Shown here: piece after piece, positions 1 through 31,635 of the stretch
Layout: each line of letters begins with the position of its first letter
Position numbering within the stretch: position 1 is the stretch's first letter
NCBI GenBank assembly: GCA_049999805.1
Contig: JBNGIO010004048.1
Span: 1-40,344, forward strand
DNA length: 40,344 nucleotides
Source of the DNA: Folioceros fuciformis
Lineage: Eukaryota
Direction of reading: 5' to 3'
Made by a program: the position numbers and the translations under genes
The notes under the pieces: generated by a model
What the model was told of the DNA's origin: nothing
Database searches by the model: none
The model's input: the letters and a program-made list of their open reading frames with translations, nothing else

Positions 1-631
1 GCCTGCACATGAGAGAGCTACCCGGTCAGTCACCGCAAGAGCAGTTCGTGACGTGTCTTCGACACTAAACATCACCGCCACTGTGTGCGCATGCTCACAT
101 CCCACATTCACATACTTGCCATCCCCTCATTGTCTCCATGCTCCTCAACCCTGCAAGCAGTCAAGTCTGAGATGCAATACCTCCGCAGCCCAAGAGGAGG
201 TCAGGTATCGTCCTCCCCAGATGTCTGGCAGCAAACCATCAAACACAAGATAGGAGAAGGGCTCCTGCAGCCTGCCCAAAGGGGAACCTCGACCAGAACG
301 TCTTCTTGCAAGACCTAATCCCAAAGCGACCAAAATCCACTCCCACAAGCCTTGTGCAACCTGGTGATTTCCTCGTCAGTCATGCGAGAGGCAGCGGAAT
401 CGCCAGACACAAGCTAATTACGGTACCAATCCCATTCGAATACAACACAGATGTAACAGCAACATCCTGGATTCTACAGCCGAGCTGTCCCCAAACTGAT
501 GAGGCAACACCGATACCGAAAATTGACAAAGGCACGCTCAACCCCAGCTCAGCAGACTGACTCCATCAAAGCCCTGGAACCAACCTACACACGCACACAA
601 CATAGACCACAGGGAAAAAAGCCACCAGTAC

Positions 632-15848: not shown

Positions 15849-16387
<539 letters not shown>

Positions 16388-17461
16388 GGCTGCAGCCTGT
16401 GGAAGCGCTAGCCGAGCGAATCAGAAGGCACGACTTCGGGGGAACAAGCCGCGAGCTCGACGTCACGTGGTGCGGGCTCGAAAGACAGGGCACGCAGCTA
16501 TAGACTACACAACTTCTATGCACAAGGATATATAGACCAAACCTAAGTACGTAAACCCGTAAGGTCCCCCCCACTACCGCTAACTGGCCAAGCAGCTAGG
16601 TGCTCCAGTAAGTAACTACTTATTAGGTTCGCATTGATTAACCTTCCATAAAGAATGAAGAAAATAGGGAAAGCCGGGTAGGTCCATGAATTGATAGAAA
16701 TGGAAGGAAACAAGGGAAGCCATGTATCTACACCAGACCTTAAAAGAAAGGTGGGGTTTAAAGTTGGAATATAATATAATATGATATTCTTTATTTAAAT
16801 TATTATTATTTAAAGTATTTTTCTAAAATAATACACTTCACATAGTAATTCTAGTGAGCTCTAAGCTAAGAGTGGTATGCAGCAGCATAGACTATAACAT
16901 CTACTTATCTAGTTTAGTATGAAGACCTTTTTTTTGGAACATTTTTCAACTTCTTTGATAGAAGTAGGATTTTTTTTTCTTGTAGCAGAGAAGACTATGT
17001 TTTGATTCTACCATGGTCACCAACTTTCTCCAAAAATGCAATGTTTGATGCTCACAACAACATAGTAGTAGTCCACACCATCTTTGTGCCTGAACCCATA
17101 CATGGAGAAATTATCAGAAAACCGGGATTATTGGATACTTGACTACGATGGTAAACCACATTGTAATGAAGATCAAGACTAGATGTAACATGGAGATGTT
17201 ATTCCTTACTAACAAGTGAAGCATGAAGTTATTGGTCTTGAAGTGTTTTGAGGTGTGTTATCTCTTTCCATACAAATGTAGGGTTGTACTTCAAAATGTG
17301 TGAAGCATTTGGGGGCGTCATTGAGACACTTATGCGGAGTTAACATCAAAAAGGCTCGAAAGAGAAGGGATTCACAAAAGCAACAACGAGCTAATACTCA
17401 TGTAGACCCACTTGAAGCAGAAACCCACAATACTACTAGTCTTGGAATAGAGCAAGAACAA

Positions 17462-20400
17462 ATGCCGCACAACAAGGTGCTTAACAACTTTGAATTTGAC
17501 TGCTCCATCCATGAATGTGTTTTATTAAATTATTATTATATTTGAAAGCACAGGTAACAGATTTCGATAGTGGCAAGAAGAAGAGCTTTAGAACAGTCCG
17601 AATTCATGTCACAGAAACAAGTGCCCTCCATGCTGCCCAAGCATATGAGTAAGAACAAAAGATGAGAGTTTTGTTTGTTCAAAGTGTTGTGTAGAGAAGT
17701 CAGTCTTGTATTGTACTGTTCTGCCTTCTTCTAATGCTTGCACAAAGAAAGATGTGTGTTGCTAATTAATGAATGAACTCTACTGTTCTTTAATTTGGTG
17801 ACAATTTTTTCAGATTTTGTAGTAATTACTTGAAGACATCGAAATATTCGTTGATAACCTTCTTGCCAGTGAATCTATTTGAACAATTTTGTAGAATGGC
17901 AAATTTGTATTTTCTATTTATAGCTGGTCTTCAATTAATTCCAGGCTTATCACCCACTAGTTGGGGGACCACTATAGCTCCTCTTTCTTTTGTTCTAGCT
18001 TTGAATGCTTTGAAGGAGGGCTATGACGAATTTCGACGACACCGGTCTGACAAAGAAGTAATTTTCTTCGACACATTGATCACATAAAAGCCACAGTATT
18101 CCCTACTAGTTGTATGCCAACATCTCTTAAACATAACTAGTTTAGTACAATCATATCAAGAGAAACAAGCAAGCAATAGAGTCTTGACTCACACAAGTAC
18201 TTCATTTTCCACACCAGATCAATAATCGCAAGGTGAAAGTACTAAGAAATGAAGAGTTTATCAGCATCAAATGGAAGTCTATCATAGTAGGAGATGTTCT
18301 AAAGATCGATATGGACACAGAATTTCCAGCTGACATGGTTTTCATGTCATCTTCTGACCTTCAAGGTGAGCTGAAACTTTTTAGCTTTCTGGGTCTTCAT
18401 GGGTTGCTGATCTCAACAAGACTACTACTACCTTGCCATATCTCACAGGCAAAGACTCTGATGTTGAAATTTAGGTCTTGCTTACATCGAAACAACAAAT
18501 TTGGATGGTGAAACCAACCTTAAAATACGAAATGCCTTCTACACAGGCGAAAGTGGTGATCTTTCTCTTATTATGCTATCAGGCTTGATAATTGAATGTG
18601 AGCAGCCTAATAATCGTCTTTATCAATTTGATGGGTGCGTCCTGCTTCAGGTTAATTGCAGCAGTATTGCAACAATCCCAAGGTTTTTAAGGCTTTTTTT
18701 GCTATGAAAAACCTCTAAGCTATAACTTTTGCAACTTATTTTATTTTATTTTATTTTATTTTTCTATATCATTTAGGATATTTTTTTTTATTACATCGAC
18801 ATTTTGTATTGCAGACACACGGAAAAATCCCACTCGATGTTAGTCAAATATTATTAAGAGGTGCTACATTGAGAAATACCGAGTGGGTTCTTGGCGCTGT
18901 GGTTTTCACTGGCAAAGATACCAAGCTTGTGAGAAATATGGTAGCTGCTCCTCGAAAGGTATGATTATTTATATCATTTAAAAAAAATATTTGCAAGTAT
19001 TTTTTTCCAATAATAATGAAAGTGTGATCTTTTCGTAAACGAAACCCTAAACCCTAAATGAAACAGATTTCCCAATTGGAGCGACATATGAATGTATTAG
19101 TGCCTACATTATTCCTTGTAATGTTCATATTATGTGGTTCTTTATCCTTAGGCCATGACTCTTGGCAAAAGTATCAGGAAAAACAACATCCATACTTGGC
19201 GCTTAAAACATATAAATGGCCTGAATTAAATAATGGATTTGCTGATATTTGTCTTCAATTACTTAGGTGAAATTTAAATATATATATATATATTATTTCA
19301 AAAATTATTTAACACATTATGTTATGAAATTAAGAATAAAAAGTTTTTTGTAGGTTTGTGATACTTCTAAACCAATTCATACCAATCTCCTTATATGTTA
19401 CCTTAGAATTGGTTAAAGTGATGCAGTGTTTCTTCCTTCAAAAAGATATGGAAATGTATTATCCAGAGACAAAAACTTATCCTCAAACGAGGACTTCAAA
19501 TTTAAATGAAGAGTTAGGCCAAGTTCAATATGTCTTGACGGACAAGACGGGAACCTTAACACAAAACGTAATGGCATTCGTTCAATGTTCAATAAATGGT
19601 ATTATCTACGGAAACTCAACAAACGGTAGTGAAGAAACTCAAGCTAGCATAGATCATCCCCACACTGTTCATACAATTTGTCAAGACAAAGAATTGATGA
19701 AGTTGCTTCAAACTTCGGAAGAGCTTGCACAATCAAGCTACGATTGTCGGGCTTGTCAAGCATTTTTCAACCATCTAGCTATATGCCATACGGTGGTGCC
19801 CACAGTTGATAGTGGGAGTTCCGATGTCGGAGAAATCAAGTACCAGGCTGCGTCACCTGATGAAGAAGCATTAGTCCACGTAAGTGTTTCGGGTTTAGTT
19901 GAAGTATACATCGAACAAGTTCGATATGAACTACTAATCTCCTGTTGTCATGTTTCTAATAGGGAGCTGCTATATGCGGATATGCACTTACAAAACGTAT
20001 GCCTGACGAGATAGTAATTAAACGTCAAGTAAACTGATAACTCAGATTTTTGGATGAATCACCATTTGAGTTCGAAATTGAAATCCTTGTTTTTGTAGAT
20101 CTGTAATGGTTTAATGTTTCTTCATTGTCCTTAGGGAGAATCCATAAAACACAACATCTTAGCAGTACTTGAGTTTACAAGTGAAAGAAAACGCATGAGC
20201 ATTATATGTAAAGACAAAAGAGGAAGGTAATGTCGGCATAAATTATTTTATTTATTGTAATCCCAGCATAGTTTTTATGGTAATTTATATTTTACTCTAT
20301 AATTAAAAAAATCATTGGTTTCTTTTTTTTTCTTTGTGATTATGCAGGATAAAACTTTTCTGCAAAGGAGCTGATACTGTTATCTTAAAGAGGTTATCAA

Positions 20401-23400
20401 AAGACCAAGGCTCTGTTGCTGAAGCAAGTCTTCGACATCTAGAAGATTTCGCCAGAGCTGGATATCGGACTTTATGCATTGCTGAGCGCGACGTAAGCGC
20501 ATTAATCTCGTAGATTGATACATTTTTATGCAAGTTGTTTTTGGTGGGAAATTTTCAGTTATTGCAACAAAAAAGGAGCTTAATATGTTGTAAATTTTTA
20601 TTTTGAAGATAAAAAACGAAGAGTATTCAAATTGGGCGTCACATTTTCGAGCTGCTAGTATTTCTCTCGATGATAGAGAACAAAAGGTTGCAGATGCAGC
20701 TGATTCAATCGAACGTGATTTGGTAAAAAACGTATCAAAAGATTGTTGATAATAGAGTTCTGTTATGAACATGGAAAGATTAAGGAACAATACCATTTAA
20801 AGCTAATCAAAGCGTAAAAAAACTATTGTTCAATGCTTTAAGGTTCTGTTGGGAGTTACTGCTGTTGAAGATAAACTTCAAGATGGAGTCCCAGAAACTA
20901 TCACTCTCCTTGCTCGAGCAGGCATCAAAGTGTGGGTATTGATTTACTCTTCATTTCATGCACATACATTCCGATGACTGTAGTTTGGATAACTTAAGTT
21001 GTGACATCTCAGATGCTATGTTCACACTTTAGGGGATGTAGACTTAACAAAGGAGGCATGATAAATCTTTCCTTTTATTTTATTAAAATAATAAAAATAA
21101 TTTATTAGTATTATTGAATGCCCAACTATATTCTAAAATAATGTATGTAGGTTTTAACAGGGGATAAACTAGAAACAGCTGTTTCCATTGGGTTATCATG
21201 TAACCTGCTAGTAGACTCTATGCACTTATTCTTAGTATCCGATAATGTATCACGATCCATTCCTCAAGCACTAGTTAACATGTTAAATGAAGCGAGAGAA
21301 GAAACAGAAGCTAGGATAAAGGCAGGTAATTGATAATTATGATATATTTGATAAGATGCAATAATTTCTAACAAGTTAACTTCTTTCAGTAATCTTGTTA
21401 CGGTGCACTGTGCTTCTATTTGTTCACCCAAAAGCCTCCGTTTCTATAGATTACTGATAAATCTAGCTAGAGAAACTTTGCTCAGACTTTGATACCATAA
21501 GCGGTGTTTTGTTCTCTGGTTTAACAAGTCATAGAAGTTTACTATCAAACATGCAGGTCGAAGACACAAAGAATCAAATATGGCCTTGGTTATTGAGGGC
21601 ACATCTCTTGCTGCTGCACTAGAGGAAGCCCACAAGTTGAAGTTTCTTGAGCTTTGTCAGCATTGCCGAGCAGTTGTTTGTTGCAGGGTATCACCAATTC
21701 AGAAAGCAGAAGTAAGTTGTCCTAAAGTACAAAAGATTGTTCCTTGGATCAAAGTAGGAACAAAACTTGAAGTTGTTCTTCGTGGAAACCATGTCATAGG
21801 TGACAAGGTTGATTAAGGAGCATGCAAAAGCAATAACATTAGCTATAGGAGACGGAGCCAATGATGTAGGAATGATAAAAGCTGCTCATATCGGAGTGGG
21901 TATTAGTGGGCGTGAGGGAATGGCAGCAGTTCTTGCAAGTGACTTCTCTTTTGCTCAATTTCGATATCTATCTAGATTGTTGTTGGTACATGGAAGATGG
22001 TAAGTAGACTTCTCTAAACTTGCTTCATGTTTGTGCTACATCATGTTTATTTATTAAAAAAAATCAAAATAATTTCAATCCTTTCCAGGTCATACAAAAG
22101 AAATAGAGACTTGGTCATGTACGCATTTTACAAAAACTTTGTCAATATGATGGGAAACTTTTTCCTCACTTTTGGATGTGCATATTCAGCACAACCTCTT
22201 TATCCAGCAGCTATGATATCAACCTATAATGTGTGTTGGACATCGCTACCAACCATGGCCTTTGCTGTCTTAGATCAAGATGTAAACCATAAGACTGCTA
22301 TCAATAACCCTAGTTTATATCGAGAGACACAAAGAGATAATCGGAAAAAGTTTTTTAAAAGCATGGGTTATTGGACAATGTGCTCCATATGGCACTCTGT
22401 AGTTGCATTTTTTTTTCCGGCCATTGCTATGTACAATGCTGAGTAAGTGAATAAGCTAATGGCTTTCAACATTTTGATGAACTACTCAATTGTAGATGTA
22501 GCTAATCGCTTGATTAGTTAACGTTACATTGTGTGATTTTCATGTTATTGTGTCATAGGAAGTTGGGCACTTCTGGAGGAATGATGTCAGTTGGAGTATC
22601 CACATACACCATGGCAATTTTTGTGGTGAACATAAAATTGGCAACTCGTTGTCATACTTTTAATTGGATCAATCATACTCTCCTTTGGGGGATATCGTTA
22701 ACAGCATACTTGGTATTTGGGATTGTGGTATCTTGTATGAGAAAGCTCCAATGGATGCCTGACCTGGATGGAGTTTCGCTTGTAACATACAGTAATGCAA
22801 GCTTTTGGCTAACAATATTTTTATCACCAATGGCAGCTTGCTTTCCGGATATTGCTTGGAAAGCATTTAGATTGCAAAGGCACCCTCAAGATCATGAAAT
22901 AATTTGTGAGATGGAGCATGGTTGGAGGTCTGGAATCTTTTGTAAAAGCATGATAGGAAGTGTTGCATCCACACACATCCATGAGCCGATTCAAAGGAAA
23001 TCGACCAAAAAGTATATTAATGCACATGGTGGGATCACAGCACAGTTGGAAGAAGCTATTGGCAACAGGTTGTTGTTTACTGAGAATGCTGAGGCCAAGA
23101 TTAGAATGACTACATTGATAGAATCAACTGATACTACAATAGAGATGGATGACATAAGCCCATTGCCAGCTACTCCTCCGAAAAGGCTATCTCTTGAAGA
23201 TGGTATTACTAAACCACTTCGTCGACGGCTTACTTGGAGACAGTTAGTCCAAGAGGAGGAGCAATTTGAGGATGTACAGCTTGTGCACATGACCCATCCG
23301 GAAATGATAGAAGATCCCCCAGAAGGTTCATCACGAAGAGGTAGCTCTAGCTATGTGGTGACAAGTCATCAAGATTCCAACCCAAGCTCACCATCATCTC

Positions 23401-24101
23401 CAGCTAGTCCTAATGTATTCCAACGTCCTCCATCACCCAACAAGCAATTTAAAGGATCCAAAAGATTATCGAAATTGCTTCCACCTTTGATGCCTCATAC
23501 ATCATCTGCCTCAACAGACACAGTACCACGAGGTACCCAAATCACAAAGCAATCTCCGAAATATGACATCTCAATCCCCTCACTTCCTGCTGTGTCAAGT
23601 TCATCCATATCATCTACTCTGACCTCTGTTGTTCAAATACCCAGTGCATCCATGGCCTCCATTCCTATGTCTTGTGTTCAGGCACCTAGTGCATCCACAC
23701 CCTCCACTCCTACCTCTCCTATTCAAGTACCAAGTGCCTTCACTCCTACCTCTCGTGTTTTGGCGCCTGGTGCATCCACATCCCCCACACCTACCTCTTC
23801 CATTCGAGGAGCTAGTGCCTCCACTCCTGCCTCTCATGTTCAAGCACCAAGTGCATCCACATCCCCCAGTTCTCCATCAGAGTCTCATGTTCAAGCACCA
23901 AGTGCATCGACATCCTCCACTTCTACCTCCCCTACTCAAGGAGCCAGTGCATTCACACCCTCTGGTTCTAAGAATGCTGGGCAATGGGGCTTGAGGTCAA
24001 CTATACTTTTGGACACAGATGAAGCTGTGACTATTGGAAAGATGAAGAAGGCAAAGAGCCCAAAATCACCAAACAACAACAAATCTCAACCCAAACAATA
24101 A
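17462..24101 (+). CDS. P4-type ATPase (phospholipid flippase, ALA family); 5' end uncertain. Exons ?-17476, 17554-17648, 17814-18057, 18218-18365, 18475-18650, 18815-18958, 19067-19266, 19354-19879, 19963-20028, 20135-20226, 20348-20492, 20609-20722, 20843-20935, 21151-21325, 21557-21711, 21800-21999, 22089-22442, 22559-24101
   Basis: Motifs: [124 protein letters not shown]. Splice phases were checked and are consistent. The frame is open upstream to an acceptor at 17281, so the true start may be further 5'. Confidence 0.93.
23631..23960 (+). repeat. Coding Ser/Thr/Pro-rich repeat (about 8 units of 12-17 aa, consensus VQAPSAST..) in the P4-ATPase C-terminal tail
   Basis: [111 protein letters not shown]. 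Confidence 0.85.
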
Positions 24102-27501: not shown

Positions 27502-28406
<905 letters not shown>

Positions 28407-28634: not shown

Positions 28635-28836
28635 TGGTGAGTATGTTCGCCCCATCCTGAGTATGTTCGTTTATCTTCCACACATACATCCAAGCGTCCA
28701 GTTGATGAGGTAGTTGTAGACATACAGTTCATTTAGGTTCTCATGGAGGCCAGCTACCCGACCCCAATGGCGTGGGCATAGGCAATGCCGTGATGGTCCC
28801 TCCTTGAACTCATTTCAGGTGGACGGTACCCGCACG

Positions 28837-31635
28837 ATGGCCACAGCATGGAACCCGGATCTGTTAAGGACCCAACAAATTGGTGTGTGCACAGGGTTGC
28901 TGCGAGGAGCTTCCGCTCACCTTATCTCAGGGAGTCAGCCCCTGGCAAACAACCAATCCGGTACCTACAGGGGCAGCACTGCAAGGAGCCCCGCAGTCCC
29001 GCTTCAGCTAATATCCGTGGGTGGGGACGGATTTTCCAGTGATGCTCGTAGTCAGGAGCAGGAGCACTTGTGGCAACAATTTTTCCTGGACCCTACCGTG
29101 TGGTGGGATAACAGACAATGCAAGACTAGCTACCGAGCTCCTGACTTCCAGCGTAAGGGGTCCGACGAAGTCCTGTGGTTAAACAGCATGCTCAAGCCAG
29201 CTTGGGTTGATGAGCAACTCGTGTCATTGGATACGGAGATGGGCCATGGTGCCTCTCCTACCAAGTCAAGCTCTCGGGATGTGCCTGAGCTTAGGAGGAG
29301 TGCAGGGTCGGGAGTGGGCGTGGTGACGGTGGGAACTGTTAGCTTGTTGTGTGAGCAGGGGAAGCTTTCTGAGGCCGTTGGAGCCCTGGAGTCCCTTGCC
29401 CAGGCAGAGTCCGCCATCCCTCAGTCTCTGTTTTACACAGTGCTGAAACTGTGTACAGCTAGGAAGGATTTGGTTGTAGGTGGACGAGTTCATGAGCTTG
29501 CTGTGAAGTTTGGGTACGAGTCGAGTGCGTACTTGGGGAACCATATCCTGCGCATGTACGCATGTGGAGGGAGGCTACAGGAGGCTATGGATGTGCTCGC
29601 CAGGGTCAGCAAACCAGATGCCTTCATGTGGTCTTCCATAATATCCGCCTACGCTAAGCATGGGCTGCCTGAGGAGGCCGTGCAACTGTACCATAGGATG
29701 CGTAGGTCAGGGGTGAGGGCGGATGCTCACGTCTTTGTAGCTGCCCTCCAAGCCTGTGCGTTGGCTGCCGACTTGGAGTCCGGCAGACAGGTCCACAGTG
29801 ATGTGGTGCAGAGTGGCATTCCTGCTAACTTGTTTGTGGGCAACTGCCTGGTGGACATGTATGCAAAGTGTGGCCAACTGAGAGATGCACGCCGAGTTTT
29901 CGACAGCATGGTCTCCAAGAACGTGGTGACATGTAATGCCCTAATCTCTGGGTATGCGAAGTGTGGCGATCTGGAAGATGCACGCCAGGTTTTTGACAGC
30001 ATGAAAGTGAAGGACGTGGTGACATGGAACGCCTTGATCGCTGGGTATGCGGAGCGAGGGCATGGGCAGGAGGCGCTTGTTGTGTATGGAGAAATGGAGC
30101 AGGAGGGCCTCAGTGTGGCTGACCATGTCACTTTTGCCTGCCTTCTAAAGGCCTGTGCGAGCACGGGTGCCTTGCAGAAGGGCAGGCATCTGCACTCACT
30201 GATTGTGAAAAGAGGACTGCTGGATAACGTACTGGTGGGCAATGGCCTGGTGGACATGTATGCAAAATGTGGCCACCTGAAGGATGCACGCCGGCTTTTC
30301 GACGGCATGGCGGTAAAGAATGTGGTGACTTGTAATGCCCTGATATCTGGGTATGCAAAGTGCGGTGACCTGGAAGAGGCACGCCAGGTTTTCGACAACA
30401 TGGCCACCAAGGATGTGGTGACATGGACTGCACTGATTGCTGGGTACGCACAGCAGGGACTGGGCCAGGATGCGCTTGTCGTGTATGAAGAGATGGAGGC
30501 AGAAGGCCTCCCTTTGGCTAACCAAGTGACCTTCGCTTGCCTTCTGAAGGCCTGTGCAAGCACTGGTGCCTTGCAGAAGGGCAGGCACCTGCACTCACAG
30601 GTTGTGGAAAGAGGTCTGCTGGATAACGCACTGGTGGGGAACTGTCTCGTGGACATGTACGCAAAATGCGGTGCTCTGGAAGATGCACGCCAGGTTCTTG
30701 ACAGCATGAACGCAAAGGATGTGGTGACATGGACCGCCCTGATATCCGGGTACGGTGCTTGTGACGAAGGTCACAAGGCACTATCTTGCTTCGAGGAGAT
30801 GCTTGCCGCCGGCGTTCAGCCCAACGATGCTACTTTCACTTGCCTTTTAGCAGCATGCAGTCACGAGGGACTGGTCCACGAAGGCCGCAAGCACTTCGAC
30901 TCCATGGCTCAAGAGCACGGCATCAAACCTACTCTTGAGCACTACAACTGCATGATCGACCTTCTTGGCCGCGCAGGCCATTTAGATGAGGCAGAGAAGA
31001 TGCTGCACTCCTGCGAGGGCCAGCACAGTGTCGTAGGATTGACGGCTCTGTTGAGTGCCTGCAAGAATCACGGGGACACGAAGAGGGCGATGTGGTGTTT
31101 CGAAACCATCGTCCGGCTGGACCCCCAACAGGCCCCCGCCTATGTCCTCATGGCCAACGCCTATGCAGACGCAGGCCGGTGGACCGATGTAGGCAGGATC
31201 GAAGCTCAGAGAAGGGCAGCAGGAGCTAACAAGAAGCCTGCAGTGGCTACCGTCGAGGTGAACAAGCAGGTGCACACGTTCCTGGTAGGGGAAAGGAGAG
31301 AGGATATTGCCCTTCAGGTAGAGAGCACGAACGCCCGTCTGAAGCAGGAAGGAGGCCACGTACCTCACACCAAGTTGGTGTTGAAGACACTGCGTGAGGA
31401 GGAGAAGGAAGATGCACTTTGCGGCCATGCTGAGAAGCTGGCTCTGGCATTTGGCCTCTTGCACACTCCCAGTGGTACACCTCTGGTGGTAACGAAGAAT
31501 CTGCGCATGTGCAGTGACTGCCACAGTTCCACTTCGATCATGTCAAGGCTCGAGCAGCGAGACATCGTTGTAAGGGATGCGTACCGGGTGCATCGTTTCG
31601 CTGCTGGGACTTGCAGCTGTAAGGGTCGGCCGTGA
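28837..31635 (+). CDS. PLS-class PPR protein, 932 aa, no coding introns: N-terminal PDF (OSB-type) motif, about 16-17 P/L/S/SS motifs, E1-E2 and a DYW:KP domain ending in GRP. Putative organellar U-to-C RNA editing factor
   Basis: PLS triplets (e.g. GNCLVDMYAKCG, DVVTWNALIAGY, VTFACLLKAC); P2-L2-S2 (ACSHEGLV.EG, HYNCMIDLLGRAG); E1/E2; KKPAVATVEV in place of the PG box; CGHAEKLA; KNLRMCSDCH; C-terminus CSCKGRP*. Confidence 0.95.
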   Translation: MATAWNPDLLRTQQIGVCTGLLRGASAHLISGSQPLANNQSGTYRGSTARSPAVPLQLISVGGDGFSSDARSQEQEHLWQQFFLDPTVWWDNRQCKTSYRAPDFQRKGSDEVLWLNSMLKPAWVDEQLVSLDTEMGHGASPTKSSSRDVPELRRSAGSGVGVVTVGTVSLLCEQGKLSEAVGALESLAQAESAIPQSLFYTVLKLCTARKDLVVGGRVHELAVKFGYESSAYLGNHILRMYACGGRLQEAMDVLARVSKPDAFMWSSIISAYAKHGLPEEAVQLYHRMRRSGVRADAHVFVAALQACALAADLESGRQVHSDVVQSGIPANLFVGNCLVDMYAKCGQLRDARRVFDSMVSKNVVTCNALISGYAKCGDLEDARQVFDSMKVKDVVTWNALIAGYAERGHGQEALVVYGEMEQEGLSVADHVTFACLLKACASTGALQKGRHLHSLIVKRGLLDNVLVGNGLVDMYAKCGHLKDARRLFDGMAVKNVVTCNALISGYAKCGDLEEARQVFDNMATKDVVTWTALIAGYAQQGLGQDALVVYEEMEAEGLPLANQVTFACLLKACASTGALQKGRHLHSQVVERGLLDNALVGNCLVDMYAKCGALEDARQVLDSMNAKDVVTWTALISGYGACDEGHKALSCFEEMLAAGVQPNDATFTCLLAACSHEGLVHEGRKHFDSMAQEHGIKPTLEHYNCMIDLLGRAGHLDEAEKMLHSCEGQHSVVGLTALLSACKNHGDTKRAMWCFETIVRLDPQQAPAYVLMANAYADAGRWTDVGRIEAQRRAAGANKKPAVATVEVNKQVHTFLVGERREDIALQVESTNARLKQEGGHVPHTKLVLKTLREEEKEDALCGHAEKLALAFGLLHTPSGTPLVVTKNLRMCSDCHSSTSIMSRLEQRDIVVRDAYRVHRFAAGTCSCKGRP
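29068..29220 (+). other. PDF motif (OSB-family ssDNA-binding module) within the PPR protein N-terminus
   Basis: LWQQFFLDPTVWWDNRQCKTSYRAPDFQRKGSDEVLWLNSMLKPAWVDEQL fits the OSB PDF consensus W..FF..P..WWDNR..K.....PDFKHK.....LWL.....P.WV...L. Confidence 0.85.
29836..30633 (+). repeat. Intragenic tandem duplication of a 399-bp (133-aa) S-SS-P-L PPR module
   Basis: Units start at 29836 and 30235, and the next S motif starts at 30634, giving an exact 399-bp period. FACLLKACASTGALQKGRHLHS and KNVVTCNALISGYAKCGDLE are identical in both copies. Confidence 0.9.

Follow-up and report, generated by a model that had tools for sequence, protein, structure and literature searches.

An OSB-type PDF motif ahead of the PPR array in a predicted DYW:KP (GRP) editing factor of Folioceros fuciformis and in PPR proteins of non-seed land plants

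The DNA analysed here, referred to as the window, comprises the 40,344 nucleotides of contig JBNGIO010004048.1 from the Folioceros fuciformis assembly GCA_049999805.1. Its plus strand contains one uninterrupted open reading frame (ORF) which starts with an ATG at 28837, ends with a stop codon at 31633–31635 and, according to both the ORF list and the translation, encodes a protein of 932 aa. As read, the coding sequence (28837–31635) is a single exon that specifies, in this order, a presequence-like N-terminus, a PDF motif of the kind known from the single-stranded DNA (ssDNA)-binding OSB proteins of plant organelles, a linker, a PLS-class PPR array, the E1 and E2 motifs and a DYW:KP domain of the GRP subtype. 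Pfam returned 12 PPR stretches (E 1.1e-92), E_motif (residues 745–807; 1e-12) and DYW_deaminase (residues 840–930; 1.2e-33), all of them downstream of the PDF motif and in the same frame. From this organisation, the gene is predicted to code for an intact RNA-editing factor of organelles, belonging to the PLS-E-DYW:KP class and, within it, to the GRP subtype.

Residues 1–77 (28837–29067) resemble a presequence both in their poor conservation and in their composition (10 S, 9 G, 8 A, 5 R, no K and five acidic residues, four of which lie beyond residue 63), and are probably an organelle targeting peptide. The PDF motif follows directly. Positions 29068–29220 (plus strand) translate to LWQQFFLDPTVWWDNRQCKTSYRAPDFQRKGSDEVLWLNSMLKPAWVDEQL, 51 residues (78–128) identical to the segment that had been singled out in an earlier sequence-only reading of this DNA; its placement there, in frame between the presequence-like N-terminus and the PPR tract, agrees with the ORF and its translation. 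The envelope of the match to a hidden Markov model (HMM) of the motif spans residues 73–133 (29053–29235). A linker of residues 129–165 (29221–29331), poorly conserved in the alignment, leads to the first PPR-like helix pair. The PPR array itself, residues ~166–731 (29332–31029), was delimited by Pfam and by anchor-based segmentation with the 5th and last residues, the latter giving the motif order P-L-S-P-L-S-SS-P-L-S-SS-P-L-S-P2-L2-S2. It includes an internal tandem duplication of a 399-nt S-SS-P-L block (29836–30752; 2.3 copies, 81% matches), within which 93-nt sub-repeats correspond to S and SS motifs; this duplication suggests recent internal growth of the RNA-reading tract. An antisense ORF of 326 aa (29727–30707, minus strand) lies entirely within the array and is better explained by the repeats and the scarcity of stop codons there than by a gene. 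The E1 and E2 motifs, residues ~732–799 (31030–31233), were recognised from the Pfam E_motif and from TPR-like matches at residues 735–784.

Public contigs match the locus as well. One of 423 nt is identical to the window over 28658–29080, that is from 5' of the ATG into the PDF motif. Contigs at least 80% alike stack on the bins of the PDF motif (29028–29241) and of the PPR array, with far fewer on the flanks, a weak hint; summed contig depth is not copy number. In run X4, 22 contigs fitted the window up to 29116 and then gave a consensus that, as we read it in frame, continues a PDF motif, which is again a weak hint.

The C-terminal domain, residues 800–932 (31234–31632), was identified by Pfam and by alignment with four canonical DYW domains. 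In this alignment KKPAVATVEV of the window protein faces KKTPGCSWIEV (canonical KK.PG.SWIEV), KP replacing PG; there is no HP pair, and GHAEKLA carries HAE where the four canonical domains have HSE. LRMCSDCH corresponds to the canonical LRVCGDCH, the zinc ligands HxE and CxxC are present, and the C-terminus (...SCKGRP) ends with GRP where the canonical domains end with DYW. From the K of the KP pair onward the domain has 133 aa, with a Lys at position 88 (VVTK88NLR). Published work is cited here and below from excerpts of the papers concerned. According to these, DYW:KP domains are marked by the KP pair, an Ala or Cys after the His (HAE/HCE), a variable C-terminus, a length of 132–133 aa and Lys88 as the only universally conserved lysine (PMC11845758), and GRP is one of two hornwort DYW:KP subgroups (PMC9478123); as of 2025, no activity had been established for natural KP proteins (PMC11845758). 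By these published criteria the C-terminus is a DYW:KP domain of the GRP subtype, as the sequence-only reading had proposed: the KP pair, HAE, the 133 aa, Lys88 and the GRP end all agree. As this subtype is reported from hornworts, the gene by itself makes a hornwort nuclear origin of the window most likely. PLS array, E1/E2 motifs and a 133-aa DYW:KP domain with KP, HAE, Lys88 and GRP are shared with hornwort GRP-type PPR-DYW:KP proteins and with the designer proteins KP2 and KP3. The published designer proteins, however, start with a PLS triplet and have no PDF motif (PMC9478123), and for the natural hornwort GRP-type proteins no N-terminal motif is mentioned in the excerpts of PMC9478123 and PMC11845758.

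The PDF motif itself was not matched by any Pfam family, even at E ≤ 10. A phmmer search with residues 66–135 against 1.84 billion representatives returned 565 matches at E ≤ 1e-3, 127 at E ≤ 1e-10 and 17 at E ≤ 1e-30, many of them with 2–13 PDF copies. Among these are a protein named 'protein OSB1, mitochondrial-like [Ananas comosus]' by NCBI (P0080; E 2.7e-13, 51% identity, query positions 1–70 on residues 198–266) and, by cluster look-up, 'OSB1, mitochondrial-like protein [Drosera capensis]' (P0095). A profile search with alignment A1 added dozens of proteins named OSB1, OSB2 or OSB3 and carrying Pfam SSB. Two word-indexed searches with the single motif, over protein lengths of 512–1631 and 30–511, gave no match, an effect of the word filter, given the hundreds of matches from the exhaustive and the profile search; no orthologue of the window gene was found among the matches. 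For an OSB-only HMM, 279 PDF instances from 167 OB-fold proteins were used, and the window copy and all PPR-linked copies were left out. This HMM matched one of the 827 six-frame ORFs of the window, namely the PPR gene, at 66.6 bits (E 5e-20; HMM positions 2–59 of 60), with a mild circularity in that its training proteins came from searches seeded with the window's motif. All 13 invariant columns of A1 are kept (W79, F83, P86, W89, D91, R93, K96, P102, D103, W114, P121, W123 and L128), as are all nine of the deeper alignment A2 (60 rows), and the 51 residues include 5 W, 3 F, 1 Y, 3 K and 3 R. A sequence search of the Protein Data Bank (PDB) with profile A1 gave no match (best E 2.3), an ESM Atlas search no usable match, and PHROGs and NCBIfam only chance-level rows. 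The segment 29068–29220 is a true homologue of the OSB PDF motif; the phmmer match to a named OSB1, the OSB-only HMM with its sole hit in the window and the invariant residues bear out the assignment made from the letters alone.

Searches for the motif also turned up proteins of other build. P0004, annotated as coming from the dinoflagellate Effrenium voratum, has nine PDF stretches and P0011, from the volvocine alga Astrephomene, has four. Reviews, as far as excerpted, call the PDF motif green-plant-specific; the Effrenium voratum copy would widen this range, or else reflect transfer or contamination. P0129 (186 aa, found in Logan only) ends with one PDF motif after a Q/P/A-rich region, showed no OB, PPR or Pfam match and is not plant-like in make-up. 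In P0058 and P0062 an OSB-like N-terminal half (OB plus two to three PDF motifs) is followed by a kinesin motor or an extended coiled coil, through either genuine fusion or the merging of gene models.

Zaegel et al. 2006 is reportedly the original paper on OSB proteins. Their PDF motif has 50 aa, and its copies, one or several, follow an OB-like domain (PMC6963530, PMC4166229, PMC6451138, PMC13393729). In AtOSB1 it is sufficient for ssDNA binding, the OB fold is not (PMC6963530, PMC6451138), and AtOSB1 and AtOSB2, the only proteins for which ssDNA binding by PDF motifs is known (PMC6963530, PMC4166229), prefer ssDNA over double-stranded DNA (dsDNA) or RNA (PMC4166229). An additional PDF copy goes along with a need for longer ssDNA (PMC6451138). 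The window protein shares with OSB1–OSB4 the 50-aa motif and all of its invariant residues. It differs in architecture: the OSB proteins have an OB-fold-like domain followed by one to five C-terminal PDF motifs, whereas here the motif is N-terminal (residues 78–128 of 932), ahead of the PPR array and not C-terminal to an OB domain. An OB HMM built from 82 OSB-type proteins found nothing at E ≤ 10 on the 932-aa protein (P0001), and no SSB family appeared among the best 25 of 33 Pfam rows. Membership in the OSB family was rejected, no OB domain having been found. In sequence, the window's PDF is closer to PPR-linked PDFs than to OSB copies, as detailed below.

The sequence-only reading had regarded a PDF motif before a PLS tract as exceptional, a view that did not hold. 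The 277 other PDF proteins that were fetched comprise 167 with an OB region, 35 with a PPR array, none with both and 75 with neither, mostly fragments. The 35 PPR proteins, among them two pairs of isoforms or alleles (P0137/P0152 and P0143/P0155), carry one to four PDF motifs, N-terminal to the PPR array in all except P0171. This Diphasiastrum protein of 1362 aa has PDFs at 93–199 and again at 629–737, within the PPR span; it probably represents two adjacent PDF-PPR genes that the gene model has joined, a hint at tandem PDF-PPR gene arrays. Five genera from four non-seed lineages are named as sources (Diphasiastrum, Selaginella, Adiantum, Sphagnum and Calypogeia), and no seed plant is among the PDF-PPR proteins in the matches listed (the best 150 of 565 for phmmer and 120 of 321 for the profile search). 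Seven of these 150 phmmer representatives have the PDF ahead of a PPR array. The 120 profile matches contain 26 proteins with PPR Pfam domains, six of them also with PF14432; 22 are from Diphasiastrum complanatum, two from Sphagnum, one from Calypogeia fissa and one is unnamed.

A DYW domain is found in only 6 of the 35 PDF-PPR proteins, mosses and a liverwort being among the lineages. All six are canonical, five ending with GDYW and P0277 with KDYG plus an extension; the remaining 29 have no DYW domain at all, and a KP or GRP domain occurs in none of the 35. Annotated but undescribed examples are Selaginella XP_024517303.1 (P0143), Adiantum KAI5076972.1 (P0083), Diphasiastrum KAJ7517632.1 (P0152) and the product of Sphagnum fallax locus BDL97_19G044000 (P0241), which ends with GDYW. 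Such proteins show the same order as the window protein, i.e. presequence, PDF and PLS PPR array, and the PDFs of P0143, P0137, P0241, P0083 and P0094 are 49–57% identical to that of the window (25–29 of 51 residues). They differ by ending in E motifs or a canonical DYW domain where the window protein has DYW:KP with GRP, and in copy number (one to four PDFs against one). Lycophyte PPR proteins have two to three tandem copies with spacers; in the moss type ~6 residues separate the PDF from the first PPR, compared with the linker of 37 residues in the window protein.

Metagenomes gave a similar picture. On contigs of the Joint Genome Institute (JGI) 276 stretches encode a relative, and 80 were kept. 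Among these 80 loci are 38 whose PDF ORF extends into PPRs (29 groups at 95% identity) and six with an OB region in the same ORF. Four of the PDF-PPR ORFs reach a DYW domain, ending with GDYW once and MDYW twice, the fourth being cut off. In sum, PDF and PPR occur together in 35 annotated PPR proteins, in 26 of the 120 profile matches and in 38 of 80 metagenome loci. The window gene is no one-off capture: its product is one of an ancient, widely distributed group of PLS-class PPR proteins from non-seed land plants with one to four N-terminal PDFs, a group that includes canonical C-to-U-type DYW proteins.

The grouping of the window's PDF copy points in the same direction. It scored 85.5 bits with an HMM of 57 PPR-linked PDFs versus 73.9 bits with the OSB HMM, and the difference of +11.6 is greater than for any of the 279 OSB copies (at most +10.6); the PPR-linked HMM, for its part, was trained on the PPR-linked copies themselves. 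In a FastTree phylogeny of 153 PDF copies, 51 of the 58 PPR-linked copies are on one side of a branch, and the window's PDF falls into a group of seven (local support 83) together with two Adiantum PLS-E proteins, three P0006 copies and the fragment P0073. The nearest rows in three trees are PPR-linked PDFs. With IQ-TREE (61 rows) the label 'PPR' needs two changes (bootstrap range 2–3; shuffled mean 18), and in the approximately unbiased (AU) test a single clade for 22 PPR-linked PDFs was not rejected (p-AU 0.397). With regard to OSB biology, the PDF is thus a mobile module, found in two architectures that exclude each other: OB plus PDF, and PDF plus PPR.

To assess conservation, the window protein was compared with six PDF-PPR proteins from moss, lycophytes and fern. 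Identical residues amount to 25–31 of 51 in the PDF, 2–16 of 77 in the presequence, 0–6 of 37 in the linker and 0–16 of 50 in the first PPR. The PDF is the best-conserved part of the N-terminal 215 residues, from moss to fern. Furthermore, 22 metagenome PDF-PPR ORFs gave a median ratio of nonsynonymous to synonymous substitution (dN/dS, Nei-Gojobori) of 0.135 for the PDF versus 0.264 for the adjoining PPRs, and the ratio was below 1 in all 142 usable pairs (of 231).

The neighbours of the gene in the window, all of them ordinary nuclear genes, are those for MED14, a TrkH/HKT-type transporter, a P4-ATPase (C-terminal part), a histone-fold protein and HSP90. Neither tRNAs nor Rfam matches were found in the window. 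The G+C content is ~50%, with an AT-rich stretch at 16–24 kb (35–42% G+C). This stretch (16000–24000) lies just upstream of and across the P4-ATPase fragment (22533–24101) and may consist of introns or a transposon. On the opposite strand, some 0.9 kb upstream of the start of the PPR gene, the ORF 27502–27954 (minus strand) ends with a histone fold resembling the C-terminus of H3 (Pfam Histone 9.6e-24, residues 92–145) after 90 non-histone residues in frame, and probably represents the final exon of an H3 gene with introns.

No paper connecting the PDF motif to PPR proteins came up in full-text literature searches; an earlier mention, e.g. in supplements, is possible. A 2026 phylogeny of OSB proteins required both OB and PDF, and PPR is not mentioned in the excerpts of it (PMC13393729). 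A survey of domain fusions in editing factors from the same year lists PPR, MORF, RRM and Znf fusions, and no PDF in the part available (PMC13386178), and only the PLS expansion is mentioned in the excerpts of the Anthoceros angustus genome paper (PMC7027989). The PDF-PPR fusion is common and present in public annotations but apparently undescribed, and the window gene would be an ordinary GRP-type editing factor with an accessory domain. The nearest conceptual relatives are RRM-PPR fusions and the trans-acting MORF proteins, with which it shares the idea of a general-purpose helper for a sequence-specific PPR protein (PMC13386178). They are unrelated to the PDF in sequence; MORFs, moreover, are separate proteins whose genes occur only in seed plants (PMC13386178), whereas the PDF-PPR proteins listed are all from non-seed plants.

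In view of these results we propose, with a probability of about one half, that the PDF serves the editing factor as an accessory, sequence-independent binder of single-stranded nucleic acid. The motif would be kept on the mature protein and would bind single strands without sequence preference through its conserved aromatic and basic residues. Because the N-terminal PPRs face upstream nucleotides (PMC10482289) and so read those furthest upstream of the edited site, the PDF would be positioned near the RNA 5' of the PPR footprint, where it may complement the sequence-specific recognition by the PPRs with general affinity or with a faster on-rate. Catalysis would stay with the DYW:KP domain, the PDF not being specific to U-to-C chemistry. 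The two to three tandem PDFs of lycophyte PPR proteins parallel the longer ssDNA needed when an extra PDF is present in an OSB protein (PMC6451138).

Several points weigh against this proposal. Literature searches found no report on binding, localisation or editing for any PDF-PPR protein. AtOSB1 and AtOSB2 prefer ssDNA over dsDNA or RNA (PMC4166229), and RNA may therefore not be the ligand of the PDF. The designer GRP proteins KP2 and KP3, which are without PDF, edit U to C in E. coli at ~26% and ~22% (PMC9478123), and moss PPR56 was assayed in E. coli without its N-terminus (PMC10482289). In heterologous systems, therefore, neither catalysis nor basic targeting requires the motif. The PDF directly follows a presequence-like stretch, with which it might be cleaved off. 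The dN/dS values derive from paralogues of a moss-like family and not from orthologues of the window gene, the pairs are non-independent, the PDF contributes only 53 codons and dS is near saturation (1.36). The trees, finally, rest on 61 columns with many forks unresolved, and show clustering rather than the number of fusions.

The ssDNA preference of OSB proteins favours the principal alternative, in which the PDF would tether the editing factor to the nucleoid by binding organelle ssDNA in transcription bubbles, R-loops or replication intermediates, allowing co-transcriptional editing with no affinity for RNA added. ssDNA is the only tested PDF ligand and is preferred over RNA (PMC4166229, PMC6963530), and the window copy, with all invariant residues kept, is recognised by the OSB-only HMM at 66.6 bits. 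Against this, there is no sign that any PDF-PPR protein is located in nucleoids, and the OSB-type and PPR-type architectures never mix (0 of 277). Moreover, the PPR-linked PDFs cluster apart (two to three label changes compared with ~18 when shuffled) and score differently from OSB copies, and therefore their ligand may have shifted. We regard such a tether as conceivable though rather unlikely. A role in protein interaction or capping, with the PDF docking onto a partner (a PDF protein, an OSB or the first PPR helices) for assembly or stability, might be suggested by the moss-type proteins, where the ~6 residues left before the first PPR would suit packing onto the end of the solenoid, and by the tetrameric state of AtOSB2 (PMC6963530), the excerpt of which does not state the part forming the tetramer. 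It is distinctly improbable given the 37 poorly conserved linker residues in the window protein and the tandem lycophyte copies with their spacers, which suit avidity on a polymer better than a cap.

The sequence-only reading had also considered a special link with the U-to-C reaction through recruitment of a cofactor; in this alternative the PDF would recruit an amino donor or cofactor or otherwise serve the reverse reaction of the DYW:KP domain. The motif of the window gene indeed sits on a GRP-type KP protein. However, all six other PDF-PPR-DYW proteins are canonical, three metagenome ORFs end with GDYW or MDYW, 29 of the 35 fetched PDF-PPR proteins are without a DYW domain, and KP2 and KP3 edit U to C without PDF (PMC9478123). 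Because the PDF sits on canonical and on DYW-less proteins and KP2/KP3 are active in its absence, a KP-specific role is disfavoured; it was rejected, its chance being very small. Nor does it seem at all probable that the PDF has no role in the mature protein, being removed with the presequence or decaying as the relic of an old fusion. Its position directly after a presequence-like stretch would allow for this, but the motif is better conserved from moss to fern than anything else in the N-terminal 215 residues, is under stronger constraint than the neighbouring PPRs in relatives and has its invariant residues intact. An artefact, i.e. a frame joining two genes or reading through an unspliced intron, or a chimeric assembly, is scarcely credible and was likewise rejected: the frame is open for 932 codons, the order PDF then PPR recurs in all but one of the 35 annotated proteins (five named genera) and in 38 metagenome loci, each of them a single ORF on an independent contig, and the identical public 423-nt contig bridges 28658–29080.

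PPR-DYW factors are usually taken to consist of a presequence, a PPR array and E/DYW domains, and synthetic editors are built accordingly. A conserved and selected N-terminal PDF in five genera of four non-seed lineages, and in a hornwort-type gene, would be an extra part of the editing machinery. Speculatively, and with considerable doubt on our side, the PDF might be an overlooked, ancient helper acting in cis on PLS editing factors in all non-seed land-plant lineages, be it as a single-strand grip or as a link to the nucleoid, while seed plants obtain such help in trans via MORF proteins. In that case, assays of native hornwort, fern and lycophyte editing factors that lack the N-terminus would systematically put these at a disadvantage, and this might help to explain the difficulty of reconstituting natural U-to-C editors. 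The PDF may hence matter for the engineering of U-to-C editors and for the reconstitution of natural KP proteins.

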